Shown piece by piece: positions 15,135 through 43,329 of a DNA stretch of 64,000 nucleotides. The stretch covers positions 79,441,018-79,505,017 of the forward strand of contig NC_081362.1 of the NCBI RefSeq assembly GCF_030684315.1, written 5' to 3'. The notes under the pieces were generated by a model, which worked only from the letters and a program-made list of their open reading frames with translations, had not been told where the DNA came from and searched no databases. The position numbers and the translations under genes are program-made. This stretch comes from Stegostoma tigrinum (lineage: Eukaryota). Position 1 is the stretch's first letter; each line of letters opens with the position of its first letter.

Positions 15135-15347
15135 AGATAATGGGAACTGCAGATGCTGGAGAATCCAAGATAATGAAATGTGAGGCTGGATGAACACAGC
15201 AGGCCAAGCAGCATCTCAGGAGCACAGAAGCTGATGTTTCGGGCCTAGAGTTCATCTGATGAAGGGTCTAGGCCCGAAACGTCAGCTTCAGTGCTCCTGA
15301 GATGCTGCTTGGCCTGCTGTGTTCATCCAGCCTCACATTTTGTTATC
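15135..15347. mobile_element. Fold-back (inverted pLTR) PLE-derived unit with an intact + strand hammerhead at 15256-15283
   Basis: Reversed pLTR joined head-to-head to a forward pLTR at the ribozyme core; TSD aaatatt(t/a)aaggcag at 15120-15134 and 15348-15362. Confidence 0.9.
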
Positions 15348-15519
15348 AAATATTAAAGGCAGTTCTTTTTAAGTTAAGTACCCTAGGCTTTCTTGTATTG
15401 AATTCAAGATGAAGGATACTTTGAGAAACAAGTTTCAAGTCCTGAGAGAAATTATAGATCTAAGAATATTCCAATTAGACTAATCACTAATGTTGCTGCA
15501 CTAAAGCTACTGAAAATGG

Positions 15520-17560
15520 CCATAAGACCATCAGATGTAGGAGCAGAATTAAACCATCAAGTCTGCTCTGCCATCCAATCATGGCTGGTAAGATTCTCAA
15601 CCCCATTCTCCTGTCTTTTTCCTACAGCCCTTGATCCCCTTACTAATTAAGAACGAATATATCCCTTAACAATAGTCACTATCTTGGACTGCTCAGCCTT
15701 CTGTGGCAATGAATTGCACAGATTGATCACTTCTGGGTGAAGAAATTCCTCCTCAATCAGAGTTATCAAGGGTCGTGTATTCACTCTAAGGCTGTGTCTT
15801 TGGCACTCTAAGGCTTGGTCCCAGTCCCTCTTACTAGTGGAAACATCATCTTCTCCATGTCCACTCTTTACCAGCCTCTTCGTATTTTGTAAGTTTCAAT
15901 GAGATCTCCCTCCTACATTTCACTGAGTACAAACCCAGCATCTTCAACTGCTTCTTATATGATAAACCCTTCATTCCTAGGATCGTTCTTGTGAACATCC
16001 TGTGCCCTCTTCAATGCGCTCATATCCTTGCTTAGGGAGCAAAACTGCTTGTAATATCCCAAATGCAGTCAGATCCTGACCCTTTATACAGCCTCAATAG
16101 TACATCCCTGTGCTTGTATTCTCGCCTTCATGAAATGAATGCTAACATTGTATTTGCCTTCCTAACTGCCACATGAGCCCGCATGGCAATCTTAAGAGAA
16201 TCCTGAACTAGGATTCTCAAGTCTTTGTGCTTCAAATTTCTGAAGCCTTTCCCCATTTGAAAATAGACTACACGTCTATTCTTTCTACCAAAGTGTCTAA
16301 CATCACACTTTCCCATATGGTATTCCATCGACCATTTCTTTGCCCACTGTTCTAGTCTTTGTCCAAGTGCTTCAGCAGCTTCCCTGCTTCCTCAATGCGA
16401 ATTGCCTCTCCACCTATGTGTATGTCTTCTGATAACGTAGCAACAATGCTCTTAGTTCCTTCATCTAGATCATGAATGCATTACAGGAATAGTTGTGGTC
16501 CCAACATTGATCCTGTGTGGAACTCCACGAGCTATTGTCCTGAAGAAGACACCTTATTCCCACTCACAGCCTTCTGCCAGTCAGTCAATCATGTATCAAT
16601 GCCAGTATCTTACCCCTAACACCGTAGGATCTTATCTTATTTTGCAACCTCCTGTGCATTTTGTGAGAGGCCTTCTGGAAATCCAAATAAGTTACATCCA
16701 TTGGCTCTCCTTTGTATAACTTACTCATTACCTCCTCAAATAATTTTAACAGATTTGTCAGGCATGACCTCCCCTTGACAAAGCATTGTTGACAGCCCTA
16801 TATTACTATGCGCTTCCAATCTCATCCTTAATAATGGACCCTAAAATTTTACTAATTACTGAGATCAGGCTACCTGACCTATAATTTCCTGTCTTCTACG
16901 TCTACTTCTCTCATTTATTTAACAGGGGTGTTATATTAGCCATTTTCCAGTCCTCTAGGACCCTCCCTGAGTTTCTGAAAGATCACCACCAATGTCTTCT
17001 TGGCTATCTCCTTCAGAACTCTGAGGTATAGTTGATTGGTCCTGGTGACTAGTCTACCTTAAGACTTTTGAGCTTTCCCAGAACCTTCTCCTTGGTGACG
17101 GCCACTACATTCACCTCCATCCTGACTCTTTTTGAAGTAGTAGAATGCAATTGGTGTCTTCCACTATGGAGATTGATGCAAAATAACTATTCATATCCTC
17201 TCCATTTCTTTGTTCCCCATTACTGCTTCTCCAGCCTAATTTTCCAGCTGTGAAATGCTTACTGTCACTTCTCTCTATTACCGTTTATAGCTCTAAAAAA
17301 TGCTTGTGCAGTCTTCTGTATTATAGCTATCTTACCCCTGTTTTCCATCTTCTCCCCCATTATTACTTTTTTTTAAGTTGTCCTCTGCTGACTTTTAAAG
17401 GTTTCCAAATTCCCTGGACTCCTAGTAATCTTCACATTTGTATGCTTTTTCTTGCTTTTATGCTGTCCCTGACTTCCCTAGTCAACCATGGTTGCCTTAT
17501 CGTCTCTTAGTATGCTCTTGCTTGAGGTGAATTTCAACTGAGCATCCCGGATTACCCCCA
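15520..17560 (-). mobile_element. Decayed CR1 LINE ORF2
   Basis: Minus-strand remnants such as MEYHMGKCDVRHFGRKN...VRKANTMLAFIS; same family as 43793-47770, with cataagaccatcagatgtaggagcagaatta at the tail end. Confidence 0.85.
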
Positions 17561-18199
17561 GAAGGTCCTGTCAGGAACAATTTTTCTGATGTTTCAATCT
17601 TGTCCTGTAGGTTTAAAAGTGCCCCATAAAAAAATACTCTCCTGTTCTCGTTAACCTCCCTATCTACTTCATTACTAGCTCTATTTTGTTCATGTCCTTT
17701 TCAAAGTTCACTTTTTAAGATGCTTAACTTGTTCCTTCTCTTCATTTTGAATAATGATGACTGACTTGTAAAAACAAAGGCCAAAGCCTTTCTTCGCAAT
17801 CAGAAATACAAAGACTAAAGATTGAAACAGCTGTGGGAAATAGGTAATGTTTACAATAGAAATGTTGCTACTTTCCTGCAAACAGTTGGCTCCCAGATTA
17901 GACACCAGTACAATATTTTTATTTCCAGTACTGGTGGCCTATTTCCTGTGCTGATTATAAGTTTATGAGCTCCCGCATACTAAATCAGCTGAACTTTTCC
18001 AAACATTTATTGCAGCCTTTCTTTCTTCTCATGTTGTGGGGAGGGGAGAGGTAGAATTAAATTACTTGTCTGGGCCACATGACTGCAGATATTTAAAAAA
18101 GTATTTGCTTGTGACTGTTTAATTTTCATGTGGAAATATTTGTAAATGTTAACAATGGAATTATGATTAATGAAATCATTGTCAGATGTTGACTTCTCA

Positions 18200-18355
18200 A
18201 ATAGCCTGGTGTACATGTGACTCCAGATCTGTAGTAATGTTGTTGACTCTTATTGGTCCTCTGAAATGGCTTAGCAAACTGCACAGCTCAAAAGCAATGA
18301 GTAATGGGCACTGAATGTTGGTCTGGCCAATGATGACAATCATGATCCCATGACA
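18200..18355 (+). mobile_element. 3' part of a tRNA-derived SINE (second SINE family)
   Basis: tacatgtgactccaga...gttgactctta...ctctgaaatggcttagcaa...gggcactgaatgttggtctggccaatgatg...atcccatga is homologous to the reverse complement of 26130-26260. Confidence 0.55.
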
Positions 18356-19754
18356 AAGTAGTGAAAAGTCAAAAATCTCTGCTGTGTTGTGTTTCCTCAT
18401 TCTGCAGTTCTCCCTTTTGAGATTTTTTACCTGATTGATGCTCTGCAACTAGAAAGCTGAAAAAAAATGTTTATTAAGAGCTCCCATTACTTCGAGCCAA
18501 TTCACATCCAGTAACTTGCTGTGCAAGTTGTGCTCACATTTTGACAGCTGTAGCAACTTGCAGTTGAGACAATGCAAACCATTCTAACACACAGTTGATT
18601 GCTGAATCTCCTCCTAATATGAATGGATCCTTTGCAAAACATTCTAGGATCAGGATCTGGATCTGTGTCTTTGCCAACAGCTAATTTGCTCTTTTGGGCT
18701 GATCTCTGCATCATTGAAATTCATGCAGTAGTTTTTGAGTAAGTCTCTTTGTTTGTAAACAATCTAACAGACGTTACTCTCCCATCTTCAATGGTGGAAC
18801 TAAACAAATCACTCATTATATTGCACTCTTGTGATGATCGGTGTTTATTTCTACAATTAATTTACTCATCAGTATATTAATATCAATCCTTTTGATGATC
18901 GAAAGATCAATTGATTGAAATGGAATATAGTGAGATTTGTGTTCGTTTACGGAGTAGTTTGAAATTCTGGTGGCTGGCATTGATTCAAAACATTACTTCC
19001 TGGCCACCAAATGTGAAATTTATTATGTACTTGGTTTAATGGCATTGTGATTCTAAGTTTCATTCTCCAGTATCTATAATGGGATTTCTCTAGAAGTCTA
19101 GATGATTTCTGCTATGTAGAAATGCCATTTCTCATCAAATTTAAGCAACTCTTCTCTACCAGTGAATCAAATTTCCTATTTCACTTAAGTGAAGGTCTTT
19201 ATGCAACCAAAAACAGTGCATGCAAGAAAGTCATTCAAGATGCACCTGACATTTTTCATTAGTTTTGAGAAATGTCTTCCTCCAATTCCTACTCAAACTA
19301 ACTTGTTCATTAACAAATGCAAAATTTGCCATGAACCAGTGAAAGCAGTGTATTAGAATGCAATATTTTTTAAAAATTCCTTGATATATTTAAATGTGAT
19401 ACTTGGTGCAGTTTGCTTAATATAGCTTAAAGTATATTTTATCTACTTTTTTTTGCCAGGATTTGCTTCCTTAGCTATTAACTACTCACCAACTCTTCAA
19501 CTCACCCATCAATGAGTCACACCTTAACGAAAATCCCGGTCCTGTGTGTTTCTGAGCATTTGCTGAACTATTTGAATGTTAAGTTGTTCACATGAAATTT
19601 AAACTGTACAGCCATAAAATTTATTGATAACGCATCCAATACTGTCCACCTTTTCAAAGCACAGATTGTACAACATCGCTATGCAGCCATTATTTTATTT
19701 CTTTTAAGTGGGAATATATGTTTACACAAAGTCTTGTGCTTTAGCCAATTCATT

Positions 19755-20760
19755 TGACAGCACTCTCTCCTGTGAATCAGACTGTCGTGGGTTTGAGACC
19801 ACTTCAGGATTTGAACACAGGAATCTGGTCTGGCATTGTTGAAAGAGGTTATATCTTTTGGTGAGATGTTAAACTAAGACCTTATCTTCCTGTCACATGA
19901 TTGCAAAAGATCCCATGGCCTCCTTTTGACAAAGGCAGAAGATTAATCTCTGGTGACTTGGAGCAGTTATATCCTTCCTTCAACATGATAAGAAGAGATA
20001 ATTACATTGCAGTTTGTCGGATTTCAGTAGCAGTACAGCTAGTTAAGGTTGAGAAGAAGACATGTAGAATACTGCCCTTTATTGTAAGAGGTATAGAATA
20101 CAAAAGTAGGGTCATAATGATAAAACTGTATAAAATACTGGTGAAGCCACAACTGGAGTCCAGTGTGTATTTATGGTCACCACATTATAGAAAGGATGTA
20201 ATTGCACGGGAGAAAGTGCACAGAAGATTTACTAGAATGTTGATGGGGCTGAAGACTTGCAGCTACAAGGAGAGATTGGAGATGTTGGGATTGTTTTCTT
20301 TGGAACTGAGAAGGCTGAGGGATTGCATTATTGAGGTAAACTAAATTGTGAGGGGTAGAAATACAGTAGCAGGAGGACCCTGTTTCCCGTGACAGACTGT
20401 TCAAAAGCCAGGAGTCATTGATTCAAGCTAAGTAGCAGAAAGATTAGGGGGAATGTGTGGAAAAATGCTTTTACGCAGAGGGTGGTGGGTTTCTAGAATT
20501 CACTGCTGCAGTTGGTAGTGGAGGCAGAGACCCTAAACTCTTTTAAAAAGTACCTGAATCTGTACCTGAAGTGCTGTAAACTGCGGGACTATGGGCTCTT
20601 AACCCATGGGAAGATGGGATTAGAAAGGGTATCTGGGTATCTTTGGACTGGTATAGACAAGAATGACTGAATGACCCTCTTCATTTCTGTGGTCCTATCT
20701 TGTTATGCGTATATTAGCTGCCTCATTTTGTACATTGTGATAGTGACTGTACGACAAAAA
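19755..20760 (+). mobile_element. DeuSINE (SacSINE1/AmnSINE1-like Deu domain) split by a CR1 insertion
   Basis: tcttttggtgagatgttaaactaagacc...aaaagatcccatggc...ttttga..aaggcagaag is a Deu-domain-like core; the SINE tail (tcttgttatgcgtatattagctgcc...acattgtgatagtgact) resumes at ~20698. Confidence 0.65.
20035..20697 (+). mobile_element. CR1 LINE ORF2 3' fragment nested in the DeuSINE
   Basis: RGIEYKSRVIMIKLYKILVKPQLESSVYLWSPHYRKDVIAREKVHRRFTRML. Confidence 0.85.
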
Positions 20761-22980: not shown

Positions 22981-23991
22981 ATTATCTCTGTGCCCAATGC
23001 AATTTATTGATGATTCATTTTAGAGTCACATGACTATGGTTGTGTCTTTTGTCTTTGTCAAGGCACTGTACCCAATTGAGGTATCTAGGATAGAAGGCAG
23101 GGTGCACCCCATAAAACTCTCACCACTGTTCTACATTCTACATTCGTTCACCTTGTCCTTTGATCTCTTAGTGATTACCAGGACCTACTACTATTCTTAT
23201 TGGAAATAATTTGAATATGGTGCTGCTAGCTGGGATTCCTGCTGCCAAGGCTGTAAATCTGAGGAAGGCCCTTTCTTGGCCTGAGGTGTCACCCGCTATC
23301 TTGGTGCCAGCATTGCCTCCTGCTTTGTTTTTATACTTTGTGTAGCAATTATATCAGCTCCCATAACATAAGAACTAGGCGTGGACTACCATTGTACTGA
23401 AAGGCTTAGCACGTGTTTATGGCAACGCCTGATATATCCATACTGTCATGGCCACTTCAGTGTCTGGGCTAATATTAAACTGTTTGATTATAACAGTACT
23501 GTGCTTCTATCAGTATGCCAGCTTCAAATACGTGCAGATAAGGTGGAATCTTTTTTACCTTCAGGTCACATGCATGTCTCCTAAAGCTATATTGCAGACT
23601 GACTGAAATATAACGCAACCGAGGGCACTTAATTCTGTTGGAGCCCACCCATTGGAAGTGATTGGGGCTCCCAAGTGATGGAACCCCTGTGGGGCAATTA
23701 ATTTCTGCCTCTTAGTAAGACTTTGGATTTTTCTTGCTTTCCTAACAGCAATTTGCGTAAAGAGAACCTGGGAACTCTGCTGAGGAATGATAAAGGCAGA
23801 AAAATAAGACCTTTTTCTGGTATAGAAATACGACCTGTGTTGTTGAAACCTTTGACATAAAGCAATAATCAAAGTTGAATTGGTATGTTTTTAACTGTAT
23901 CTATTCAGGATAAGCAAACTGGAAGAACTGGATGAGGTAGTTCAGTCACATAAGCCTGTTCCACCATCCCTGTTCAGATCTATCTACTTGC

Positions 23992-24184
23992 TGAGTGATA
24001 GTAAGAATTGTTGATGCTGCAGCCAGAGATAACATAGTGTGGAGCAGGAGGAGCACAGCAGGCCAGGCAGCATCAGAGGAGCAGGAAAATTGACATTTTG
24101 GGTCGGGACCCAAACGTCAACTTTACTGCTTCTCTGATGCTGCCTGGCCTGCTGTGCTCCTCCAGCTCCACACTGCGTTATCTA
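23992..24184. mobile_element. Older fold-back PLE pLTR unit
   Basis: Imperfect inverted arms around ttttgggtcgggacccaaacgtc; TSD tatctacttgc at 23981-23991 and 24185-24195. Confidence 0.85.
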
Positions 24185-24699
24185 TATCTACTTGCCTATC
24201 TGTCTTACCTCTTCCATATTGACAATCCTTCAAAGACCTGACATTTCACTAGTCTTCTGGATACCCCTAATTCCTTCTCCCCATCATTGATGTTCATGCC
24301 TTAGTCATTTTGGAATTCTGTTCCTAAAATGTCAGCTGTTAGTCATTAAAACCAACCACTTTGGCCAAGCTATTAGGCAGTCATCCTTCTTTAGCCCAGT
24401 CTTTAGATCTGTTTTTGTTTGATTACAGTAAAGCACCTTGGATGTTTTACTGTATTAAAGTTGCAGTATAACTTCAGGGTTTTTGTTGTGATCTTCTGAA
24501 AATATTCAGTTGGATTAGTTAGGTGTGATCTGCCTTTCCCAAATACTAATCCCTTAGATCAGTTTATACTTCAAATGCTCATTTATCCTATCCACGAGTG
24601 ATAGGTTACAGTAATTTCCCTGCCACGTGCAACTAATTCTCATTGTAGTAACTTTACTACACATTTTAAAATGTAACATAAACACACAAGAAGATACAA

Positions 24700-27698: not shown

Positions 27699-28029
27699 GG
27701 GGTGGTACAGTGACACAGCAGTTAGCACTGATGCCTCACAGTACAGGGGTTCCAGCTTTCGGAGATTGTTTGGAGTTTGCATTCTTGTCATGTCTGCATG
27801 GATTTCTGTTTGTTCTCCACCCACAGTCCAAAGGTGTGCAACTTGGGTGGATCGGCTGTGCCAAATTGTCCTGTGTTGTCGTAGCGGGGTTAGCTAAGGT
27901 AAATAAGGTAACGGGGATATGGTGGAGTTGAGAGTATGGGTTTGGGTGGGATGCCCTTCAGAGGGTCAGTGTAGACTTCATGAACTGAATGGCCTCTGTC
28001 TGCACTGCAGGCATTCTGTGATTCTATGA
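27699..28029 (+). mobile_element. HE1-like V-SINE
   Basis: ggtggtacagtgacacagcagttagcactgatgcctcacag head, tggagtttgcattcttgtcatgtctgcatggatttc..cccacagtccaaaggtgtgca V-domain, tgaatggcctctgtctgcactgcaggcattctgtgattctatga tail. Confidence 0.8.
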
Positions 28030-29350
28030 AAGCAATCAATTTAGGGTTTGTGTTTTTAGATGTGATGCAGTAATTCCCAAAAGCTTTATAATTTATTCCA
28101 CATGCAATTTAAACATTGGCACTGAAGTAGTAGCAACTGTGCACCGTGCCACATATAGTCTCTGTCCGTGCTGGAGTGAAACCCCATGTGTTGATGCCAA
28201 ATTTAATGCTTCCACGCTTTTTAATCCGTTCCAGTAGTTTGATGCATATAGAACAAGTATGGCACAACAGTAAAATTGAGCATGAAATAAATAAATATAA
28301 CATTTTGAATTGTTGATAGACTAAGACAAAATCAAATCAGCTATTTATTGGAACTTCATTGGAAATTGATGTGCAAGAGAGACAGCAATCTAAATTGGTA
28401 CATTAGAAAACAGTGTTATTTTAGGTTATTTTACTCCTGAATGATGTCTGACAATAATGAGCTCCATATCTGAATATGACAGCAAACACATTGAGAAGTG
28501 AGAACCATTAAATCAGGCCCACTGTTCTGTCTAACCCTGAGAATTCCGATTGTCACCTTTCTAACAATGCCAGTCTCTGCTTTGCTTTCTTTATTGAACC
28601 TCCTAATTCTGCTGCATTCACTTCTTAGATCTTTACATGCAGCAGTTCAGCTTCAACTAGTATGAGCTTTTGTTGGCATAGTGTATCATACTCTCTTGCT
28701 TTCATGAATAAATATAATTAATACCGTGAACGAAAAAAATGTTAGCAAAGCCAATGAGTTTGAAGGCTGAATATTCCCCTGAACCTGATGCGATGCATAC
28801 AAGGATATTAAAGGAAGCAGCTATACAGATAGTGGATTCACTGCTAATAAGCTTCCAAGAATTCTTAGGTTTTGGAAAAATTCCAGAGGATTGGAAAACC
28901 ATGTTTACACCTTTAAAGAAAGGAAGGAGTCAAGAAAGCAGGTAAATCTAGGCCAGGTAGCATAATGTCTGTTATTGGAAAAATGTTCCAGTCATAGGGG
29001 ATGCAATATATGATACATAAAGGTGCAATAGAAGATGGAAAATTGGCTAACTAATAGAGAGTTGGGATTAGGGAGCATTTCAGGATGTCAACTTGTAACA
29101 CACGGAGTGCCACAGGGATCATTGCTGGGACCACAATTATTTTACACTGATTATTAATGATATGGATGAGGAAAGTGAAAGTACTATAGATGCATTTGCA
29201 GATGACACAAATTTAGGTGGGAAGGCAGGTGCTGTAGATGACACAGAGAGACAACAGAGGGATATAGACAGCTTAAATGAATAGGCAAAAACTTGGTAAA
29301 TGGAATCTTGTGGGAAATGAGTGTCTGTATTTTGATAGGAAGAACATAGA

Positions 29351-29671: not shown

Positions 29672-29816
29672 CAGCAGAAAGTTACAGCACAGGGGATTTA
29701 GAAGTCCTCATTCGTAAATTACAAATAGCTAGCAGGAGCATGTTCAGTGGGTGATAAGGGAAGGGCATTAGAATGTTGGCCTTCATTCCAATGTGACACA
29801 AGTGTAAAAATAGAGA

Positions 29817-30025
29817 TGTGAGGCTGGATGAACACAGCAGGCCAAGCAGCATCTCAGGAGCACAAAAGCTGACGTTTCGGGCCTAGACCCTTCATCATCT
29901 GATGAAGGGTCTAGGCCCGAAACGTCAGCTTTTGTGCTCCTGAGATGCTGCTTGGCCTGCTGTGTTCATCCAGCCTCACATCTTATTATCTTGGAATCTC
30001 CAGCATCTGCAGTTCCCATTATCTC
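29817..30025. mobile_element. Young fold-back PLE pLTR unit with perfect 84-bp arms and an intact hammerhead at 29899-29926
   Basis: 29814-29897 is the exact reverse complement of 29900-29983 with a 2-nt spacer; perfect TSD tgtaaaaatagaga at 29803-29816 and 30026-30039. Confidence 0.93.
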
Positions 30026-31641
30026 TGTAAAAATAGAGAGGTTTTGCTAAAATGATACAAAGCAGTAGTCAGACCAAGGCTGGAAAACTGTGAATAGTTT
30101 TGGGCCCCATACCTAAGGAACGATATATGGACGTTGGAGACAGTCCTGGGAAGGTTCACAAGGCTGATTTCTGGATATGCAGGGCCCATCTCAAGGGAAG
30201 AGGTTGACTATGATAGACGTGTACTCATTGGAACTTAGAAGAATGAGAAGTGACCTTATTGAACCACACAAGACTCTTACAGGGCTTGTCAGCATATTTG
30301 TACAGAGGTTGTTTCTCCTTTGTTGGAAAGACAAGGACCAGCAAGCGTAATCTCACAGTAAAGGACTGCTTATTAAGGCAGAGTTGGGGAAGATTATTTT
30401 TTCTGAGGTTAGTGAATCTATGGAATACTTACTACAGAGGCCATAGGCCTGGGTGTTAAGTATATTCAGGGCTGAGATTGCTAGATGCTTAATCAATAAG
30501 GGAACCAAGGATTATGGGGAAAATAAACAGGAAAGTAGATTTAAGAGTTGTAAAATCAGCCATGATCTCATTGAAGGACAGAGCAGACTTGATGAGCTGA
30601 GTTGCCTACTTCTGCTCCTATGTCTTATAGTCCTTTCTCTCTCAAAATTCCACCTCCCAGTTGGTGAGTTTGAAATATTTATCCTCATTTATAAATTTCA
30701 CATACTGTTTACCCTCGTTCAAATGTCATATTAAACTCTAATCAGGTGTTTATTTCCACCTCATCATTAGCAGAAGACCTTTTCTGTCATCTAGCCCATG
30801 TATTCGAACACTGTCTGTAAATTCATCTGATGCTTTCCAACTTCAGAAGTTTGCTGCACCTCCAAACTTTGGTCACATCTCTTAATTGTAATGTTGATTA
30901 TTGTTCATCTCTTCTCTGAGATACCTTGGAATACCTTCTGCAATAACTGTGCTATTATAAATGCTTGTTCTGTCAGCAAATTATATGTAACGTTAAATAT
31001 CTAAAATATTTCAAAGGTTCTTGAGTGTGCATACATTTTAGTGGCACCTTTCGGTTTTCAAGATGCCCCAATTTGAGCTATACTGTAGGCCATTCAAGGA
31101 TTCATTACTTTTCTTGGTTGCTATATGTAACTAGAGGAAAAAAAAATTTTGTTTAAGGAAATTACCTAGTTGTAAATAATGAGCATTTGAGGCATAAGTC
31201 GACACACGTAGGATTATTTTTTCTGCAAAATTATCCCCTACTTCTCTGAGATTATCAATGCAAAATGGTGACAGTTTTATGCGATCACTAAGAATTTGAT
31301 TGCAATTTTACGTCAATTGGCAAACGGAAAAGCTTCAGCAAAACATGTCCAAAATCTCAATGTATATGTCAATATACTATAATACCAGTATTTATTAACA
31401 TATCAATGTACTACCAGATATATTTTGATGTACTTATAAACCTAACTATTATTATATACACTTTTAATTAGAAGGAAACAGCTTTTGGGTATTTGTTGTG
31501 ACAGTGATTAAAAACAAGGCCATTCATCATGTCTAAAAGTTTTTAGAGAAAATCCGTGTTGTTGAGTCACACTGAAGGTAACTTGTTTATCAGATTAGGA
31601 AAATTTGGCATCTGTAAATATCTAATCTGTTTTTATTTTAG

Positions 31642-32059: not shown

Positions 32060-32800
32060 TGTAAGCAATGCCAAATACTGTTGGGAGTGATTTGAGGAAA
32101 TGCAAGTTTGTTTAGAAGTTAATCAAATTGCTTTTTTTAAGTGTCATGTGTATTGGTATTATGGTTTTAAGAGGTGTATTTTGTCCTTTTGGTTTTGAAG
32201 GTAGGTTGCAAATGAGGTGTAAAGCAGTCTGTTCAAAGCCAGTAAACAGCCTTTGTAAGGCCTTGGCTTTTTAAAAATTGGAACAATAGAAGCACCTTAA
32301 ATGGGTGCGGCCAATCTGCCACAGATTTTTAGTTTTAGCCTTCAGCGGTTGCGGGAGTCTTAAAGCTGGTTGTGGAAACTCTTATTCTTCTGTTTGTTAC
32401 AGCTAAAAGCTGTGTTCTCTTCCTGCTGGTAGAATTGCATGCAAGACTGTCCATTTTACTGAATTTGCCTTTGCCAAGGGTGTTATCATGGGACTTTACT
32501 ACATTGGAACAGTTAATTAGCAGTAATTACATATGTTATTTTGTCGAACATTTCAATAGACTTACAGTTAAGCCAATTCTTTTGTTTATATTTTGTCTGT
32601 ATTTTAACTGTAGCGTAAAAATAAAGTGTTTTACTTGAAGTTGAGTAGTTTGACGAATTAAATTGCATCTGGAGCACAATGCCTTAAACTTAACTTTAAA
32701 TAAAAGGTTATGGTCTTTGTTCATCCAACCCCACACTTTGTTATCTTAGTGCTTAGGCTGTCGTCTTAATACTTTGAGGAGTTTGTTCTCGTTCATAACG
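32060..32800 (+). mobile_element. Probable solo LTR containing a ~30 bp PLE pLTR fragment at ~32719-32748
   Basis: Starts TGTAAG, has AATAAA near 32620, ends gttcataac; internal gttcatccaaccccacactttgttatctt matches the pLTR. Confidence 0.4.
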
Positions 32801-33379
32801 CATGTTTAGAATAAGTCTTGTTAATTAAATCCCCATTGATTAGTTAGATTGAGTTGACTTTGATTGCCTCTGACTTGACTGATTTTGGCAATAATGGCTG
32901 TTTGAGAAATAGTTTCCAGGGTGAATTATTTTTGGACCCTGTGCAGAATAAATTGCAAAACCCAGTAATAGGCACTTCACTGATGTGGTCAGTGTTTGAG
33001 TTTGGAATATTAAAAAGAAATCGATGGGTTGAAAGACTTCTTCTATGCTGCCTGACTCTATGAAGTCAGGTTGGCTTGCTGGAACACTGTTTAGGAAACC
33101 ATTCTTTTTTGGAAAGAAAATATAGCTTTATGATCTTCTCATTCCAACAATATTGTATGCAAGCGGCTAATATAATTCCACTGAATTTCAGCAATCGAAG
33201 CCTGTATTGAGAAAAATTTGCCCAAACTCAACTTTGTAAAAGTAGTACCTCTCCAAAATATTAGCACAACTTGGAAACCTTTACATTTTCATTTAATTAG
33301 ATGGTATATTTCTCTGTAGTGATCTATTTTGTATGCATTTCATTCAAGTTCCCTATAAGCAAATGGTTCTTAATGTTGT

Positions 33380-33607
33380 GATCAGAGATAATGGGAACTG
33401 CAGATGCTGGAGAATCCAAGATAACAAAGTGTGGGCCTAGATGAACACAGCAGGCCAAGCAGCATCTCAGGAGCACAAAAGCTGATGTTTCGGGCCACGC
33501 CCTTTGTCAGAAAAAAAGAGGATTGAAGGGTCTAGGCCTGAAACCTTAGATTTTGTGCTCCTGAGATGCTGCTTGGCCTGATGTGTTCATCCAGCCACAC
33601 ACTTTGA
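33380..33607. mobile_element. Fold-back PLE pLTR unit flanked by an inverted 16-bp duplication
   Basis: Reversed pLTR plus forward pLTR; tggttcttaatgttgt at 33364-33379 is the exact reverse complement of 33608-33623. Confidence 0.85.
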
Positions 33608-34435
33608 ACAACATTAAGAACCAAGATAACAGAGTTTAAAATAGTCACGACCTGTACTTTTGCTGTAAGTTGTTTTAAGAAAGTTAAATGTAAAAGTTTT
33701 TGTTTACTTCCTTTTGTCATTGTGAATTCCTGTTTTTATCCCTGCACTTGCCAAACTTGTCATGACCAGACCCCAGATAAGGATCATAATTCTTTACATT
33801 TCCAGACGCAATATGCCAACCTATTGAGCTCCTGGGTGATGAGGGATGAACCAGCTCCCTTTTTATTCACCTACCCCTCAGTTAGTCATGACAAAGTTAA
33901 TTTAGAAAGGTTCCTTTCTCTTGTGGGCATCTTTCTTCCCAACCCAAATAATCTTGTGTTTTAATAGGAGTCAATGTCCCAGGCTTTCCTGAATTAACAA
34001 AGTGTGAGATTAGTAAATACTAAATATGAGAAGAATCAGTATAGACTAGAAATGAGAGTCCAAGAAGATAAAAGTTTAAAAACTCTGATATATTGATCAT
34101 GAAGAGTGTGTTTTTGAATATTGCAGCCATTGCGATGAAGGGTAACCGGTAGTTTGGATACCTTTCACTTTGGTTGAATTCTCGCATTCAGGATACAGGA
34201 GAGTGCTTTGTTATCCTGTTTCCTTTTTTACCGATTTTTAGCAGTGTTATAGAGGGTCTTTACTCGCAGCACAGGCAACTAGGGGAAAATTCTTTAACTG
34301 TTACCTTCATGCTAATACAAACCTTAGCCTAATACGTGTAAGAGCATTCAATCCCACCAACTCAGTGTAGTAACTGTCTTTTTAATCTCTGTCCTTGTGC
34401 ATTCTTCAAAGTGAAAACATCAAATATGCATGTAG

Positions 34436-34533
34436 AGATAACGAGGTGTAGAGCTGGATGAACACAACAGGCCAAGCAGCATCAGAGGAGCAGGAAAGCT
34501 GATGTTTTGGGCCTAGACCCTCCTTCAGAAAAG
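34436..34533 (-). mobile_element. Solo PLE pLTR fragment with degenerate hammerhead
   Basis: Reversed pLTR ending gcctagaccctccttcagaa; TSD aaa(t/c)atgc(a/g)tgtag at 34422-34435 and 34534-34547. Confidence 0.8.
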
Positions 34534-34696
34534 AAACATGCGTGTAGTTTGGGACAAAATCCAAAAGGGGTGGATTTTAGTTGAACGGTGTTTTGTCAGC
34601 TCCTTACTATCTCAGTAGTCACAGGAGATTACGGTCCAGTTTGTTTGAAATTTTTTTGATCTCTTTTAAACGTTGTATCCTATGTTCAAAGGACAC

Positions 34697-34769
34697 AAGA
34701 TAATAAAATGTGAGGCTGGATGAACACAGCAGGCCCAGCAGCATCTCAGGAGCACAAAAGCTGACGTTC
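34697..34769 (-). mobile_element. Solo PLE pLTR fragment
   Basis: aagataataaaatgtgaggctggatgaacacagcagg..gagcacaaaagctgacgtt; stops a few nt past the predicted cleavage site. Confidence 0.8.
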
Positions 34770-36185
34770 CATTTTTTTGCAAACTGCACTTATGGTCTCT
34801 CTAGCAATCCTCTCTTTAAAAAATACGTTTTCGAATTAGAGTTAAAAAACATGTCCAAAATGCTTTGCAGTTCTGACCTGTCATCGCAACAAAACTGCAA
34901 CTATTTATTCATGAGAGTGAGAGTACATTGTTCTCTGTCTGACTGGGTATTTGGGCCATATGCTACTGTTGGTTTTACGAATTTCATGACTGAAATTAGC
35001 AAGCTGTGCAGTCCAGTCAACTCCTATTCCCGTGGATTGGAGTTGAAGAATTGAGGCCTCTTAACTGGATATTCGGAAGAGCTATGAAATAAGCCAACGG
35101 GTAGAAGCAACACATGAAGCACCAAGTTCTTCCAGTGTTCTGATTAATCAGATGTAACTAAACGTGCATTTAGGGTGAGAGTGGAGAATGATGGAAAGAA
35201 AGTGGATGATAGTGATATTTCCTGCCTAGATGCATTGACCTTTTACAGCTTGCCTGCATAAGGATGATAACCCCAACTGAACTAATTTTTACTGTCAATT
35301 AAGTCGTACATGATAGCTACTGAAGTTTGTATCAGGTATCTTAAGACAACTTGGTGGTATCTTTAAGGAGTGATGTTGCCAAGCCCTGATGTACATTCCT
35401 ACTTTCTCACAGAGATTGATTGTTACATCTTATTATTGACATGCCAGGCCTCATGCCTTCAAATGTGTTTAAAGAATTATTACTTACCTTGCTGTCTATT
35501 CACTGTTGAGGTTGAAGTGAAAGTCCTAATTATTGTTATAGTTGTTGCAACTATTGTTGGATGCAGTATGGACCTTCGAATGGCTAATCATATCATTTAA
35601 CATTAGCTTTATGCGGCAGGCAGTTCCAGAACCAGGTCTCCCATAAAAGACTGTGGTGGTACTCTCATCCCATTTAGAGAAAAATGTTTGAGATTTCAAC
35701 ACATTAACTTGCTGTTGATGTACAATTGATGCATAGCAGAGAATTAAGTAAGAGAATTTGCCAAAAATCGCATTTCTAATCAACTTAAAATGTATGGAAA
35801 TTTTCAACACATACTTCTCCTGTACAAGGAGTTGGCCCTAGTTTTCAGTCATGTGTTTAATGGCAGATATTGTAGAAGTAGGAACATAAATTGAGGTTTT
35901 GTTGTAGGGAATGTGTATGGATCTTTTGGAATGATATCCTTAATGAATGAATTGATCATATATTCACCGAAAGGTCATTTTTATTGATGTTCTTCTCATT
36001 GCCACAAGCTCCTTTCTCTGTTGACGCTCAACTTTAGAAATAAGGAGGGGTGAAGAAGTGATGACTTTTGTGCAGTAAAAAAAAATAGGGAAATGGAACG
36101 GAGTGGAATGTCGGGGAAAGGTTAAAGAATGAGAGAGATTAGAGATCAACAGTGTAACATTACAAAATGCAAGGGGAATGATATT

Positions 36186-36515
36186 TCATAGAATCATAGA
36201 ATTCCTACAGTGTGGAAACAGGCCCTTTGGCCCAACTAGTCCACACCGACCCTTGGAGCATCCCACCCAAACCCATCCCCCCCAAAAACCCACCTAATCT
36301 ACAGACCCCTGAACACTACAGCCAATTTAGCATAGCCAATCCAGTTAACCTGCACACCTTTGGACTGTGGAAGGAAACTGGAGTACCTGGAGTAATCCCA
36401 CACAGACAGGGGAGAATGTGCAAACTCCACACAGACAGTCGCCCGATGGTGGATTTGAACCCGGGTCCCTGGCACTGCGAGGCAGCAGTGCTAATCACTG
36501 AGCCGCCATTCCTCC
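36186..36515 (-). mobile_element. HE1-like V-SINE, well preserved
   Basis: Minus strand: ggcggctcagtgattagcactgctgcc (A box), gggttcaaatcc (B box), V-domain, gggccaaagggcctgtttccacactgtaggaattctatgattctatga tail. Confidence 0.88.
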
Positions 36516-36519: not shown

Positions 36520-36715
36520 AACCTTTGATTCTCCCATTGATCTAAAATCTATCCAACTCGGCCTTCAATATTCACAAAGGCTGTGGTCCCAGAGTTCTGT
36601 ATGGCAAGGAGTTCCAAAGACTCAACTCAGAAAAAATTTTTCCTCATCCCAGTCTTAAACTGGCACCACTTTATTCTGAGACTATGCCTGCTGGTCTTAG
36701 ACTCTCCCATGAGGG
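36520..36715 (-). mobile_element. CR1 3' fragment
   Basis: aaaatctatccaactcggccttcaatattc..ttttcctcatcccagtcttaaa..cttagactctccca is the reverse of the ORF2 end. Confidence 0.6.
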
Positions 36716-37574
36716 CAAGCGACACAGATCTACATTAGGTGTTAATAGCAGAATATAAATCAGTGTTCACTGACCTGGAGGAGTACCACCTCACTTTCTG
36801 CCTTATTACTTTATCATCTTCTGACCTTTAAATGGAATTTAATAGACTCTTTCTCTCATGCTGAATTTCTCCAACATTTTGTTTTCATTTCAGATCTCCA
36901 ATATCTGCAGTATTTTGCTTTTGACTATATGTACATCCACCCTGAAAGGGAAAATTCTTAATCCTCAAAAGACTAAACGAGTCTTAGATTTCTTTATTTA
37001 AGCATTTGTTCATGCATGTATGGGAAGTAAGGCATCAAAAATGGTGCGCAATTCTCCAATTTTGTATGAAGCCTTTATACTATTTTTACAGATATGTTTC
37101 TGAATAAAGTCGTGTTCATTCTGCTCTACATTCCAAGTTAGTACACTTGACTTTATTATTTAGTCATTTTCAAATCGGTACACATGTTCACACCTAACTG
37201 TATGTACATACTTAGAGATTATCAAAATTTTTTACCTTGATTCAAATCCCTTCCAATCCCTTTTTTGTCAAAATTCCATGGCCTGTAAGAGAAATGTTGC
37301 TTTTAGTTTTCCCTTAAAGGTTTAAGAAAACCTATGTATTGTGGTAGAATTCATCTACTGCAGCCATCAAGAATTTTAGCTGATAGTGAACAAGTGTTAA
37401 GCACAGGACTATCAATGCTGTGTGATGAGACAAAGTGCTGGAGAAACACACGAGGTCTGACAAAATCTGACATCCTGCTGTACCACAATACTTAATGTTC
37501 AATCTTGGCAAAATTTCTGCACTTCAGTGTCAGCCCTGTGCCATGCAGTAGTAGATTTTGCTAAGCACTTCATT

Positions 37575-37900
37575 GGAACAAGAGTAGGCCATTCAACCTG
37601 TTGTGCTTGTACCACCATTTAATACGGATAATCCTTTATGCAATTCATAATCAGAAATCTATCAATTCTACTTTGAGCATTCTTAAATACTGAGCTTCCA
37701 TAATCCTCTAGGATCATTGGAAGGTTCCAATGTTTCACAACCCTTTGAACTATTTTAAAAAACATTCTTTTTATCTTGGTCCCAAAAGGCATCCGCCTTA
37801 TTTTTAAATTATGCCCTCCTGATTCTGGACGCCCCAAACATTGTGAAACATCTTACTTACATCTACCCTGTCTATTCTTTCTAAGTATTTTGTAGGTTTC
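37575..37900 (-). mobile_element. CR1 3' fragment
   Basis: Minus strand GGHNLKIRRMPF.TKIKRMFF..QRVVKHWNLP...IDRFL. Confidence 0.7.
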
Positions 37901-38835
37901 AGTTCAATATTTTAAGTGTTGCTCTGTACAATCCAACAAAAGTTAGCTAATTATTTGTAGACAGAGGGGGAGAGACATATTCGATTGAATTTATTTAGTA
38001 CAATTCAGATATTTACCCTTGATTATTAGCGGATCCCTGCTTTTCATTTTGTAATGCACTGTTCCAAGACACATCTTATAAAGTATTTACAGTGTAGGAA
38101 CAGCTATTCAGCTTCACAGGCTCATGTCTGTCGTTTCTACATTTCATACAAACCTCTCATACTCCTTTCTGTCAGTAGATTCTTCTCTGCTTTTTTTTCC
38201 CTTGCACTTATCCACATGAATATATCTCTGGTCTTAGCCTTGACTCTTATCTGTGGAGCTAAGTCCCAAATTTTAAACACCTTTTTTGATAAAGAATTTT
38301 CTCCTTAATTCGCTATTGCATTTATTAAAGACAACTTTATTTATGGCATCTCATACTCTTTAACCTACAGAGAAAATTAGAATATTTTCCAATATCCATC
38401 TTTTCAAATCTTGTCAGATCATCCTGCAGTCTTCATTTCTCAAGGAAACAACCCAGCCCATTTTAATCTTTCCTGGCATTTGCAACTTATAAATTCTTCA
38501 TATTATGTTGGTAAATCACTGTATAGTTTCTCTTAAGCTTTATCTTTTTTAAAAAATAATTTTGGGGACCAAAACATGAGCCTCTGCATTTTGTGCAATC
38601 CACCACTGTGCACTATTGTCCCCTGACAGTGGAGCAAATCAGTGATAGTTATTTTGATCAAGCTTTTTGGATGTGTTTTGACAGATCTCTGTGGCCAGTG
38701 GGACTTGAACTTGAACCAGTGGCCCAGAGGTATGGGAGCACACCACTAACTATAGAAGAGATTTAACAAATTATATTTATTGTTGGACAGGGCAGCTTTG
38801 TAAAGATGATGAAATCCCAATTTACACTTTTCTTA

Positions 38836-38916
38836 GATGACAAGGTGTAGAGCTGGCTGAACACAGCAGGCCAAACAGCATCAGAGCAGCAGGAAAGCTG
38901 ACATTTCGGGTCTAGA
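38836..38916 (-). mobile_element. Older pLTR fragment interrupted within its hammerhead by a younger PLE; it resumes at 40206-40230
   Basis: ...gctgacatttcgggtctaga | insertion | atttcaggtcgagacacttcttca restores gacgtttcgggtctagacccttcttca. Confidence 0.7.
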
Positions 38917-40205
38917 TAATGGGAACTTCAGATGCTGGAGAATCCGAGATAACAAAGTGTGAAGCTGGATGAACGCAGCAGGCCAAGCAGCATCTTACGA
39001 GCACAAAAGCTGACGTTTCAGGCCTCGACCCGTCATCGGAGAAGGTTCTGAAATAAATAGGGAGGGAGGGGGAGGCGGACCGAAGATGGATAGAGGAGAA
39101 GATAGGTGGAGAGGAGACTACAGGTGGGGAGGTAGGGTGGGGATAGGTCAGTCTGAGGAGGATGGACAGGTCAAGGAGGCGGGATGAGGTTATTAGGTGG
39201 GAAATGGAGGTGCGGCCTGAGGTGGGAGGAAGGGATGGGTGAGAGGAAGGACAGGTTAGGGAGGCGGTGACAAGCTGGGCTGGTTTTGGGATGCAGTGGG
39301 GGAAGGGGAGATTTTGAAGCTTGTGATGTCCACATTGATACCATTGGGCTGCAGGGTTCCCAAGCGGAATATGAGTTGCTGTTCCTGCAACCTTCGGGTG
39401 GCATCATTATGGCACTGCAGAAGACCCAGATGGACATGTCGCCTAAGGAATGGGAGGGTGAGTTAAAATAGTTCACGACTGGGAGGTGCAGTTGTTTATT
39501 GCGAACAGCGCGGAGGTGTTCTGCAAAGCAGTCCCCAAGCCCCCCCAAAGTGTAGCACTTCCTGCGGTTGCAGGGGAAGGTGCTGGGTGTGGTGGGGTTG
39601 GAGGGGAGTGTGGAGCGGACAAGGAAGCCCCGGAGACAGTGGTCTGTCTGGAAGGCAGACAAGGGTGGGGATGGAAAAATGTCTTTAGTGGTGGAGTTGG
39701 GTTGTAGATGGTGGAACTGTTGGAGGATGATGCGTTGTATCTGGAGGTTGCTGGGGTGGTATGTGAGGACGAGGGGGATTCTGTTTTGGCGGTTATTGCA
39801 GGGGCGGGGTGTGAGGGATGTTTTGCAGGAAATGCAGGAGACACGGTCGAGGGTGTTCTCAACCACTGCGGGGGGGACATTACAGTCCTTGAAGAACGCG
39901 GACATCTGGGATGTGCGGGAGTGGATTGCCTCATCCTGGAAGCAGATGCGGCAGAGGCGAAGGAATTGGGAATAGGAGATGTAATTTTTGCAGGAGTGTG
40001 GTTGGGAGGAGGTGTATTCTAGGTGGCTGTGGGAGTCGGTGGGCTTGAAATGGGCATCAGTTTCACCTCCCCCTCCCCTACCTATTTATTTCAGAACCCT
40101 CTCCCCATCCGCCTCTCTGATGAAGGCTGTGGGCCCGAAACATCAGCTTTTGTGCTCCTGAGATGCTGCTTGGCCTGCTGTGTTCATCCAGCTTCACACT
40201 TTGTT
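38917..40205 (-). mobile_element. PLE family A copy (Neptune-like Cys linker) with an internal deletion of the GIY-YIG core and an inverted pLTR at the right end
   Basis: ORF 39171-39905: RIPLVLTYHP..PCNRRKCYT|LG..DCFAEHLR..HLPVVNYFNSPSHSL. Forward pLTR at ~40055-40205 with hammerhead 40117-40144. TSD atttc(g/a)ggtc(t/g)aga at 38903-38916 and 40206-40219. Confidence 0.9.
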
Positions 40206-40999
40206 ATTTCAGGTCGAGACACTTCTTCACGGGAGAAAAAAAATTCACACAAGTTTCTTAGTACTTTTGTTACCTCCAAAAAAAAATGGATACCATAGAC
40301 GAAAGGGAAAGAACTGATTCATCTTGGTCTGGAAGAAAGTATTTTTCCAATTATTCTTGTATATTCACATTGGGGTTTAATCAGCCTTTCTCCCAGGACA
40401 GCAGAAAAAGTACAGAAATAGTAATAATTGTAATCACAGCATGTACAATTATACTTGTTGCATATTGGATACAGACGCAATACGGATCCTTGTTACTGAC
40501 CAATTTATGTGGAACCAATTATAAAATTTGACGGAAGTCTTGGATGTGACGTAGATTGCATAAATTTGCACTTAGAACGACATCAGTTCTGATATACACA
40601 TGGATTCCATGCTTGGCTAGTGTAGAAATTATAGTTTAAGAAAATATTTCCATAAATTATATAATTGACCAGTTTTGACTGGTATATGGCTGGAAAACGT
40701 TGTACTGTATAAATGGGTGTTCTTTCATGGTAATGGAAAAGCATTCAGTTCAGTATTTGACATAATTTTGATCTCCTGAAGCAGGAGAAGTGTGTTATTT
40801 GGAAAAAATCAAAGTGGATTTCTTACCCTGTTGAAGGCAGCAAAGAAAACCACTAAGTTCAGCAAGGCCAGATGCTCAAACCTATTTCTATTAATTATAC
40901 GAGATAACTTGAAGCAGAAAAGTGTAATCCCATTGAGAAGCGCTATGTGCATACACAGTTTATATTTAGAGGAATTAAATTAGTTGCCTTCATTAAAAC

Positions 41000-41640
41000 A
41001 ATAGCTGCATTGATTATGAGAGGAATTGAGCAAAGAAGCAGGGATACTATGCCTCAGTTATATAGGGCATTTGTGAGACTACATGTGGTAGACTTTATAA
41101 TTTAGTCTCCTTGTTTAAGGAATAATGTAAATGTATTGGAAGCAGTTCACATGAGGTTTACTCAATTGACACTTGAAATGAGCAGGTAGTTTTATGAAGA
41201 GAGATTGCACAGATTGGGTTTGTTTTCAGCAGAGTTCAACAGAGCAAGTACTGAGTCATTTGAAGTTTATAAGGTCCTGAATGATAGTGATAAGATGAAC
41301 ATGAGAAGGATGTTTACTTTATGGATGACCCCACAACTTGGTGACAATGTTTTAAAATTGGTGGCTTCCTTTTTAGGAGAGAGAGGAGGGAAAATGTTTT
41401 CTGTCAAAAGCTTGCTGAGTTATGGACCGCTGCCTCAGAAGATGTTGGAAATAGGGTCAGTGAATATTTTTAAAGCAGGGGCAAACAGATTCTTTCTAGA
41501 TAAGGAAGCCACAGACTGTTGGGGATACATGGGAACGTGGAATTTGGAATACAAACCAATCAGCCATAATCTTACTGAATGGAAGAACAGGATTGAACTG
41601 ACAAATGGCCGATTTCTGCTCATAGTTCTTGTGTTTGTAG
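41000..41640 (+). mobile_element. Decayed CR1 ORF2 3' fragment
   Basis: RGIEQRSRDTMPQLYRAFVR..; RLGLFS.E..; NIFKAGANRFFLDK. Confidence 0.75.
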
Positions 41641-41919
41641 GCCCAGGCAGAGGCCAAACTCAAACAGTAGAAGAAGCTGTAAAAACCCAAACATCCCTTG
41701 CTCCTTTCTTTGCCTACTTCACTTGCCCATTTGTGGTCGGGTGTTCAAATCCAGTATTGAACTGTTTAGTCACCTCAGGACTCTCAATTCTCGAATGGAA
41801 CAGATTCATCACCTATTCAAATACTCGTTTCCTCTTCCTTAGGCAGTCCTTTGATGCAATCAAATTGTTTTTACTAGAAGAAGCACACTACTCAAATGAC
41901 CCAGTATGATTCATAGACA

Positions 41920-42089
41920 AGGTGTAGAGCTGGATGAACACAGCAGGCCAAGCAGCATCACAGGAGCGGGAAGGCTGACGTTTCGTCAGGCTGCCTGCTC
42001 CTCTGTTGTTACTTGGCCTGTTATGTTCGTCAGCTGTACACCTTCTTATCTCAGATTCTCCATCATCTGCAGTTCCTACTATCTCTGAA
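41920..42089. mobile_element. Older fold-back PLE pLTR unit
   Basis: Arms meet at gctgacgtttcgtcagg; TSD atgat(t/g)catagaca at 41906-41919 and 42090-42103. Confidence 0.85.
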
Positions 42090-42218
42090 ATGATGCATAG
42101 ACAGACTGGTTCTCTATATGCTTATTAGGGCGCAGCTGTGAAAATGTTGCCTATTGAAACACTTGTACATAAATTTATTTCCGGGCATTAAAAAGTGTTC
42201 CCAAGCAGGGCAAATAAT

Positions 42219-42470
42219 TGGTTAGCTCTGCCACCTGTCAACATTTAGGGACCTGGGTTCAATTCCTCGGACAACTGTCTGTGTAAAGTCTTCACGCTCT
42301 CCTTGTGTCTGCATGGTTTCCTCCAGGTGCTCTGATTTCTTCCCACAGTCCAAAGTTGTGCAGTTTAGATGGATTAAGCATGCAAAATTTCCTGTAGTGT
42401 CAGCAGATGTGCAGGCTAGTGGATTAACCGTGGAAAATGCAGGGTTACAGCCATAGGGTAGGGAAAGCAC
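42219..42470 (+). mobile_element. HE1-like V-SINE, partial
   Basis: gggacctgggttcaattcctc B box and gtgtctgcatggtttcctccaggtgctctgatttcttcccacagtccaaag V-domain. Confidence 0.75.
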
Positions 42471-43113
42471 AGACTTGATGTTTTACTTACTCCTGGTCAC
42501 TTAGAGGATGTATTTTGTTTGGCAGAGCAGATTTATGTTCTCTTCCATTCAGAAAATCTGCATTCGTCAATCTTGAGACTTCTGGTTCAGATTGACAATA
42601 AGGCACGGTTTGCATTTGTCCTTGTCCCTTGGCATTTCACAAGGGTTTCTTTGATCATCTGGATGTCTTTGTGCCCCTGTGGGTAGTGTAGTGAGGAGGT
42701 AATGCTGTTGAACCCATAGTTGGCGTGTGTGTACATGTATGTACTGGCACAGTGAGAGACGCGGTTGATTGACTTCACAGTTAAGACCAGTTGTGTGGAC
42801 CAAGTATCATCAGCATGGCAACAACTCTCTGACTTCTGAGCAGGTGAATAATACAGAAGCAGAAGGTCTACATCCAACAAGAGATAGCAATTTTCTCTCT
42901 GTCTCTCCAGTGAAGTAATTGAGAACTGAAGGGTAGCTAATCTATCGTACCATTTGCAATGAACTCTTCCATCTAACCTATGACTGAAAGACTGAGCAGT
43001 CAATGGGTCAACTGCCCTGTATTTTCAGCCATGAACTGTAAGGATCTGCAAATAAGGAAATCCCAGATCAATAGGACTTGGAACAAGCCAAAGGGACTTC
43101 ATTACATTCTGTG

Positions 43114-43329
43114 ATAACAAGGTGCAGAGCTGGATGAACACAGCAGGCCAAGCAGCATCGTAGGAGAAGGAAGGCTGACGTTTCGGGCCTAGACCCTTCT
43201 TCAGATGAAGGTCTAGGCCCGAAACATCAGCCTTCCTGCTCCTGAGATGCTGCTTGGCCTGCTGTGTTCATCCAGCTCCACACTTTGGTATCTCGGATTC
43301 TCCAGCGTCTGCAGTTCCCATTATCTCTG
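43114..43329. mobile_element. Fold-back PLE pLTR unit with an intact minus-strand hammerhead at 43177-43204
   Basis: Minus strand reads CTGAAGA-A-GGGTCTAGGCCC-GAAA-CGTC; TSD att(a/g)cattctgtg at 43101-43113 and 43330-43342. Confidence 0.9.

Follow-up and report, generated by a model that had tools for sequence, protein, structure and literature searches.

Seven short hairpins without an open reading frame (ORF), built of head-to-head copies of what appears to be the hammerhead-bearing pseudo-long terminal repeat (pLTR) of a Neptune-type Penelope-like element, were found in 64,000 nucleotides of DNA from Stegostoma tigrinum (assembly GCF_030684315.1, contig NC_081362.1, positions 79,441,018 to 79,505,017 of the forward strand; hereafter the window, in which all coordinates are counted). 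Within each hairpin a copy with a terminal tail is paired with a shorter one, the two tend to stop at matching positions of the element, and most units lie inside a single target-site duplication. It is probable that such units arise de novo by priming on both strands of the target. The more specific reading preferred here, to which we assign a probability of roughly 0.55, is that both nicked strands primed complementary DNA (cDNA) from two start sites about 35 nt apart on a single RNA, and that the cDNA ends were then joined.

Positions within the element are counted from the T before the CTGATGA box of the hammerhead (+1), the predicted cut falling between +29 and +30. U1 to U6 denote the six units of a first-pass annotation of the window, and U7 a seventh hairpin added in this analysis, in which further family copies were sought by BLAST and profile searches within the 64 kb. 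All six were found to be as annotated, each consisting of two pLTR copies joined 5' to 5', with inverted arms of 48-88 nt that are 79-100% complementary; the list was incomplete, since U7 and three longer two-armed insertions share the anatomy. The two-armed insertions are as follows.

15135..15347: U1 hairpin; tail arm on the minus strand (about +4 to +127), short arm on the plus strand (+1 to +93); duplication 15120-15134 / 15348-15362.
23992..24184: U2 hairpin, oldest sequence variant; arms meet in hammerhead stem II (about +10/+17); duplication 23981-23991 / 24185-24195.
29817..30025: U3 hairpin, young; short arm on the minus strand to +3, tail arm on the plus strand from +1; duplication 29803-29816 / 30026-30039.
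33380..33607: U4 hairpin; arms separated by about 12 nt rich in A; direct duplication lacking, left flank repeated in inverted orientation at 33608-33623.
41920..42089: U5 hairpin; arm starts at +21 and +26, the greater part of the ribozyme core absent; duplication 41906-41919 / 42090-42103.
43114..43329: U6 hairpin; junction as in U1, sequence variant different; duplication 43101-43113 / 43330-43342.
60516..60838: U7 hairpin plus partial tandem, inside a long interspersed nuclear element (LINE); three arms, each with its start at the predicted ribozyme cut (about +30); duplication of 13 bp, 60503-60515 / 60839-60851.
1382..1959: two-armed insertion; inverted tail-only arm (+95 to +126) and a 5'-truncated body of 545 nt ending short; duplication 1368-1381 / 1960-1973 (13/14 matches).
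5883..6750: old two-armed insertion; body on the minus strand with a short end, tail-only arm on the plus strand (from about +80); duplication uncertain (7/8, within chance).
38914..40210: two-armed insertion; tail arm of 1.17 kb on the minus strand, with remnants of the reverse transcriptase (RT) thumb, cysteine linker and GIY-YIG domain, and short arm of 145 nt on the plus strand.

The claim that five of the six units are flanked by direct duplications of 11-15 bp was borne out with at most one mismatch each: 14/15 matches adjoin U1, 11/11 U2, 14/14 U3, 13/14 U5 and 12/13 U6, and at least 11 matches were reached by 0.6% of 2000 random site pairs. No direct duplication was found at the edges of U4, where instead 16 bp of the left flank (33364-33379) recur inverted and without mismatch at 33608-33623, a feature absent from the first-pass annotation. 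This copy is perfect although the arms of U4 differ at 14/83 positions, and it is possibly a templated repair insertion or a later micro-inversion; beyond it (window 33364-33379, 33608-33640) the next 12-15 nt resemble the short end of the element in antisense. The LINE interrupted by U7 has a related copy, 74-78% identical, in which the target occurs once (57013-57020). The search of the window for such empty sites recovered both flanks in one paralogue for this one of nine insertions, and for none of U1-U6. The predicted fold of U3 reaches -181 kcal/mol (z = -25.5), a stability equalled by 0/200 shuffles.

The 3' ends of the arms fall into two classes, short (about +83 to +95) and tail (about +126 to +135), and a tail is paired with a short end in 10/10 two-armed insertions (p=0.0055 under random pairing). 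None of the three complete single-arm copies has a tail (Fisher p=0.0035 against the two-armed insertions; p=0.001 with one more single arm counted). The single arms, together with a copy that runs off the window, are listed here.

38835..38916, continuing at about 40213-40232 to +2 past the nested insertion, minus strand: older single arm with a short end; degenerate outer duplication of about 17 bp, by eye.
34436..34533, minus strand: single arm with a short end, stopping at about +1 and followed by a few A; duplication 34422-34435 / 34534-34547 (12/14 by eye).
34696..34768, minus strand: single arm with a short end, stopping at +24; no duplication found.
1..222, plus strand: 3' end of a body-bearing copy with an intact hammerhead motif (134-161) and a short end; runs off the window.

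The last of these and a fragment of 33 nt at 32715, which complete the family in the window, were left out of the counts of single-arm and two-armed copies. The hairpin is the commonest form, accounting for 7/13 complete insertions; about one per 10 kb was proposed earlier, and seven were counted in the 64 kb of this window.

The 5' ends, read by hand, lie at +4/+1, +10/+17, +1/+3, +1/+6, +26/+21, +4/+1 and +30/+30 in U1 to U7. They match within hairpins: 36 of 5040 permutations are as close for the seven units (p=0.007) and 32 of 720 for U1-U6 (p=0.044). Of 22 scored arm ends, 10 fall in +1 to +6, two of these in single-arm copies, a concentration equalled in 0 of 200,000 simulations under a crude null of exponential truncation. 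Of the three long two-armed insertions, two have only a stub for a tail arm, broken off at or close to the short start (+95 and about +80) as though the first cDNA had stood in its way. Short runs of A follow three arms that stop near +1 (window 33512-33518, 34530-34533, 40236-40244) and may be untemplated additions to cDNA ends or variant upstream sequence.

Repeated de novo formation, as proposed in the first-pass annotation, is also supported by the relationships of the arms, which cluster by unit and by sequence variant and form no left or right lineage. Since an arm tree on 54 columns had low support at most nodes, a permutation of distances was used instead: the distance is 0.068 between arms of one unit and 0.146 between units (p=5e-5). 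The arms differ at one of 54 core columns in U1, 11/79 positions in U2, none of 81 in U3 and none of 62 in U7, whose repeated block is likewise identical (108/108). The spacer at the centre of the hairpin is 1 nt in U1, 2 nt in U2 and U3 and absent in U7, and the join of U2, in stem II, shows 5 nt of self-complementarity. The youngest variant, represented by U1, U3 and U7, has three different junctions. The earlier argument from differing junctions is weaker than was stated, the junctions of U1 and U6 being identical.

As judged from the sequences, the arms come from a Neptune-type Penelope-like element, namely from its pLTR with the hammerhead, and relatives of this element occur in carpet sharks; published work is cited here and below from the accessible portions of each text. 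The pLTR lies 3' of the ORF in three complete body-bearing copies, and the ORF remnant at 39426-40076 is 45-60% identical to proteins of whale shark, zebra shark and bamboo shark; the Penelope origin proposed earlier is upheld. The closest of the comparisons, with the whale shark protein P0001, gave 60% identity over the remnant; P0001 contains a C-terminal GIY-YIG domain above the cutoff and an RVT_1 match below it (E 9e-5), while the Pfam scan of the degraded window ORF itself gave no match. A cysteine-rich linker between RT and endonuclease, the defining marker of the Neptune clade (PMC8557442), was seen by eye in both the window ORF and P0001, and the assignment to Neptune follows from this linker and the order of the domains rather than from a tree against named clade references. 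The zebra shark protein P0002 reads through the pLTR region with 86% identity. Full tails number 11 in the window; in Penelope-like elements the tail is described as optional, 30-40 bp long and present at one end only (PMC8557442; PMC3846280). A weak tail-like match with a different continuation (window 36890-36911, plus strand, E 0.09) is perhaps the tail of another related family. The single match of a 23 nt pLTR pattern to a bacterial or archaeal genome was dismissed as chance, with no similarity outside the pattern.

The hammerhead motif noted earlier is supported by the consensus of 10 copies, which has the core boxes, an extra base after A9, the G10.1-C11.1 pair, a palindromic 15.2-16.2 and a GUC cut triplet, the features of minimal Penelope-like type I hammerheads (Cervera 2014, PMC4209133). 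Helix I has only 2 bp in the shark motif, a length given for D. virilis where 4-5 bp are typical of minimal hammerheads (PMC4209133). No hammerhead family was found in Rfam at E<=1, the 15 matches, sub-threshold microRNA ones among them, all being under the gathering score; helix pairing in 95.5% of cells was equalled by 216/500 shuffles, so that covariation is not significant. The description of U1-U6 as ribozyme palindromes was overstated. The core is intact in 3/12 arms (U1 short, U3 tail and U6 short) and is buried in the long duplex of the predicted fold, and activity of the units as ribozymes is therefore unlikely. The 5' edge of the ribozyme is where most arms end; U7 alone ends at the predicted cut, and its arm starts at about +30 would fit ribozyme cleavage. 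Cleavage was discarded as the general cause of stopping, since it does not explain the stop at +1: the ends of 10 arms lie 24-29 nt upstream of the cut. A splice acceptor at +1 was also discarded, as no AG is found there.

The sequence that follows the tail of U7 indicates which part of an RNA was copied.

60677..60733, plus strand: sequence beyond the U7 tail, with a probable ORF start at 60712 that reads MPNLKKL.

The motif MPN[L/F] occurs in the first 40 residues of 3/123 homologues and 0 times in 79,564 other residues. Because U7 runs on past its tail for about 60 nt, into a frame that resembles the N-terminus of homologous ORFs and has a probable ORF start, its template would have spanned the pLTR-ORF junction.

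On the preferred reading, each hairpin would be the product of one step, dead on arrival, made by the Neptune-type element. The GIY-YIG nuclease would cut both target strands 11-15 nt apart; one strand would prime a cDNA from the short site (about +83 to +95), its partner from the tail site (about +126 to +135), and both would most likely, we infer, use the same RNA. With the enzyme loaded on the pLTR-ORF junction near the 5' end of the transcript, both cDNAs would run for 60-130 nt to a common end. This end would usually be at +1 to +6, where the enzyme may have reached the 5' end of the RNA or may just have finished copying the hammerhead hairpin, and sometimes at +10 to +30; in U7 it would be the predicted ribozyme cut. 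A blunt join, or one that uses self-complementary stretches of 2-5 nt, would then link the 3' ends of the cDNAs, and the duplication would result from gap filling. The tail-primed enzyme would either halt at the first cDNA, leaving a stub, or displace it and copy to the same end, giving a hairpin, and loading on the 3' pLTR instead would yield a long body with an inverted stub. Biochemical precedent is offered by PAc, a Poseidon element of anole, which in vitro, on a template spanning the pLTR-ORF junction, cuts and extends both target strands from two internal start sites at the bounds of the tail, gives shorter products from RNA shortened at its 5' end, and is predicted to be a dimer (Frangieh 2024, PMC11167929).

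In its original version the proposal took the two opposed priming events to have used separate RNAs and to have stalled near the ribozyme independently of each other. Opposed priming is supported, and both anatomy and duplications would be the same with two RNAs; the few variant-marking differences between the arms of U6 and the very unequal arms of the insertion at 38914 would suit them, and a hairpin from +2 to +31, predicted in the fold of one copy in its element context, could halt the enzyme. Independence, however, predicts neither the strict pairing of tail with short end nor the matched stops, nor tail arms that stop at the short start in two of three long cases, so that this version appears unlikely; stalling is one of two options, as running off the RNA 5' end accounts for the stops equally well. 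Recombination between direct pLTRs, a rival that the first-pass annotation had likewise missed, would start from a full canonical insertion (inverted pLTR, pLTR, ORF, pLTR with tail) and remove the ORF in the manner of a solo LTR. The full structure, with its duplication and one-sided tail, is published (PMC3846280; PMC8557442). We nevertheless consider this origin improbable: no full-length element was found in the 64 kb, the three complete body-bearing copies are cut down to 0.5-1.2 kb, the repeats available for recombination measure just about 90-130 bp, U3 and U7 are young and have identical arms, and U7 retains only about 60 nt past its tail.

Self-priming, in which one cDNA or antisense template folds back and is copied, is the preferred published reading of comparable head-to-head junctions in rotifers (Arkhipova 2013, PMC3846280) and would necessarily give matched ends and identical arms. 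The spacers of 0-2 nt in U1, U2, U3 and U7 are too tight for an intramolecular loop and mostly rule it out. Furthermore, in U1, U5 and U6 it is the short arm, from which the tail could not have been templated, that reaches the more 5' position, and the tail-only stubs are no copies of the opposite arm; this quite improbable route fits at best U2, with its self-complementary join in stem II. That a few master hairpins were copied as a non-autonomous family resembling MITEs (miniature transposable elements with inverted repeats) is very unlikely. Similar sizes and the junction common to U1 and U6, the kind of identity proposed earlier as a mark of a master, speak for it, but the arms group by unit nonetheless, the youngest variant alone has three junctions, the ends are asymmetric, the 11-15 bp duplications vary in length, and the distance of tail arms from other tail arms (0.162) is no smaller than from the short arms of other units (0.146). 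One master is argued against because the arms of one unit are the closest and their stop points are matched. An assembly or library fold-back artefact would agree with the inverted flank of U4 and with palindromes being a known assembly problem for Penelope-like elements (PMC8557442); it is barely credible for units with direct duplications, arms that differ by up to about 20% in the older ones and, for U7, an uninterrupted relative of the host LINE in the window.

A number of points weigh against the single-RNA mechanism. The sample is 10 two-armed events in one window, partly scored by hand, and the truncation null is simple. By rank, the arm ends correlate weakly (Spearman p=0.08 for seven units; p=0.51 once two long insertions are included), the correlation may itself be produced or inflated by joining at self-complementary sites, and in the insertion at 38914 the arms both extend beyond the ribozyme to unmatched ends about 1 kb from each other. 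The join is the same in U1 as in U6, the short arm reaching +1 and the tail arm beginning at about +4, and the arms of U6 differ at 2-3 positions that also separate sequence variants, which fits two RNAs, or is possibly due to chance among 12 differences. The hairpin junction of U7 is equally compatible with a stall or blunt joining at +32, the base of the hairpin. Recombination would leave an identical final sequence and would account for the clustering at the pLTR 5' edge, and the inverted flank of U4 is left unexplained by the favoured mechanism. PAc belongs to Poseidon, not Neptune, so that the in vitro support comes by analogy from a related clade; moreover, it works in vitro without ribozyme cleavage, and no RNA-seq reads end at its cut site (PMC11167929). 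Whether minimal Penelope hammerheads cut in vivo is described as unresolved (PMC11167929; PMC4209133).

In L1 twin priming the two target strands prime on one RNA and an inverted 5' piece is left inside one duplication, an arrangement that the insertions at 1382 and 5883 resemble. The L1 pieces do not overlap and their second primer site is variable, whereas in the shark neither start varies and the two arms are usually copies of the same 60-90 nt. The closest published anatomy is that of canonical inverted-pLTR Penelope insertions such as Pen2a_Av of Adineta (PMC3846280; Craig 2021, PMC8557442), which share the head-to-head junction with a short overlap or palindrome. Pen2a_Av also has one target duplication, of 8-10 bp, and a tail of 30-40 bp at one end (PMC3846280; PMC8557442), as one duplication and a one-sided tail are found here. 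The shark units differ in the lack of an ORF and of a second direct pLTR, the junction alone constituting the insertion. Head-to-head pLTRs, a one-sided tail and a target duplication are thus published Penelope anatomy, of which the units are the minimal form; what is new is their regularity, which points to a specific and testable mechanism. The origin of the inverted repeats and one-sided tails of Penelope is stated to be unresolved (PMC8557442; PMC11167929).

Poseidon PAc resembles the units in that both strands are cut and extended, the tail lies between two internal start sites, a ribozyme is found about 100 nt upstream and insertion into the element's own pLTR has been proposed (PMC11167929). 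The last agrees with the insertion at 38914, which landed in an older single arm, within its ribozyme stem II, and has a degenerate duplication of some 12 bp (window 38835-38916, 40205-40250). In the accessible text of that paper, which concerns another clade, pairing of one start with each strand and joined hairpins are not among the reported products (PMC11167929). Dual hammerheads of Schistosoma mansoni are likewise pairs of minimal hammerheads on opposite strands, about 100-700 bp apart and attributed to truncated elements; the portion of the account available describes them without duplications, tails or mechanism (Cervera 2014, PMC4209133). Retrozymes that lack long terminal repeats (non-LTR retrozymes) are non-coding, hammerhead-bearing, pLTR-related and known in one chondrichthyan, but form head-to-tail tandems with a ribozyme in each unit (bioRxiv 10.64898/2026.07.22.740005), whereas the shark units are inverted pairs mostly without an intact core, and the direct repeat of U7 has no core. 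The earlier term MITE-like is apt for the shape, both being short, non-coding, self-complementary and dispersed; retroelement origin, asymmetric ends and the lack of a copied master set the units apart, and near-identical master copies, symmetric terminal inverted repeats and a short duplication of fixed length, by which MITEs are recognised, are not found among them. Among searchable full texts, a scope outside which most subscription papers, Dfam and Repbase lie, no description of stand-alone ORF-less pLTR hairpins or of strict pairing of tail and short arms was found, and the class may be on record. The palindromic repeats of coelacanth, chaetognath and D. virilis are not linked to pLTRs in the parts available of the papers concerned (PMC4255032, PMC2997562, PMC12910113).

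The remainder of the window is rich in other repeats. RT-bearing LINE copies, which we take to be CR1-like, lie at 15520-17504, 43794-45825, 56391-59039 and 59865-62077, the frame at 56523-57806 being open for 427 aa with a strong RT match. A dispersed repeat of 200-250 bp, probably a short interspersed nuclear element, occurs at 3693-3950, 9870-10090, 27791-28031, 36184-36509 and 42247-42463. A second element, apparently Poseidon-like, has left a remnant at 12453-12890 (plus strand) that matches GIY-YIG weakly (E 0.058), and an unrelated palindrome of 73 bp at 52204-52276 has arms of 35 nt, 86% complementary, without similarity to the pLTR. The Pfam scan for host genes covered 85 of 151 frames of at least 75 aa and gave no clear host exon, exons below 75 aa lying outside it; two weak matches, ALKBH8_N and GDSL lipase (window 11539-11883, plus strand, and 46935-47213, minus strand), are probably transposon-derived.

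Units of this kind are prone to being mislabelled as MITEs, DNA transposons or microRNA hairpins, and some vertebrate palindromic repeats filed as MITEs or as unclassified hairpin-with-tail elements could, we presume, share their origin. If transcribed, they would form duplexes of 60-90 bp; a Penelope of a lizard and a palindromic repeat of a frog are among the repeats edited most (PMC5625713). It is tempting to speculate, as a tentative proposal, that Penelope-like elements insert by programmed twin priming, in which a dimer uses two start sites on one RNA, one for each strand, that ORF-less hairpins are the main product in carpet sharks, and that each hairpin records the 5' end of its template twice. 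Were this so, and did the local density hold elsewhere, which is an extrapolation, each genome might contain hundreds of thousands of hairpins, and those ending at +30 would amount to evidence in the genome that minimal hammerheads cleave in vivo. Since the units reduce an insertion to two starts and two stops, a census of one genome could test twin priming on a single RNA and map the 5' ends of the templates.

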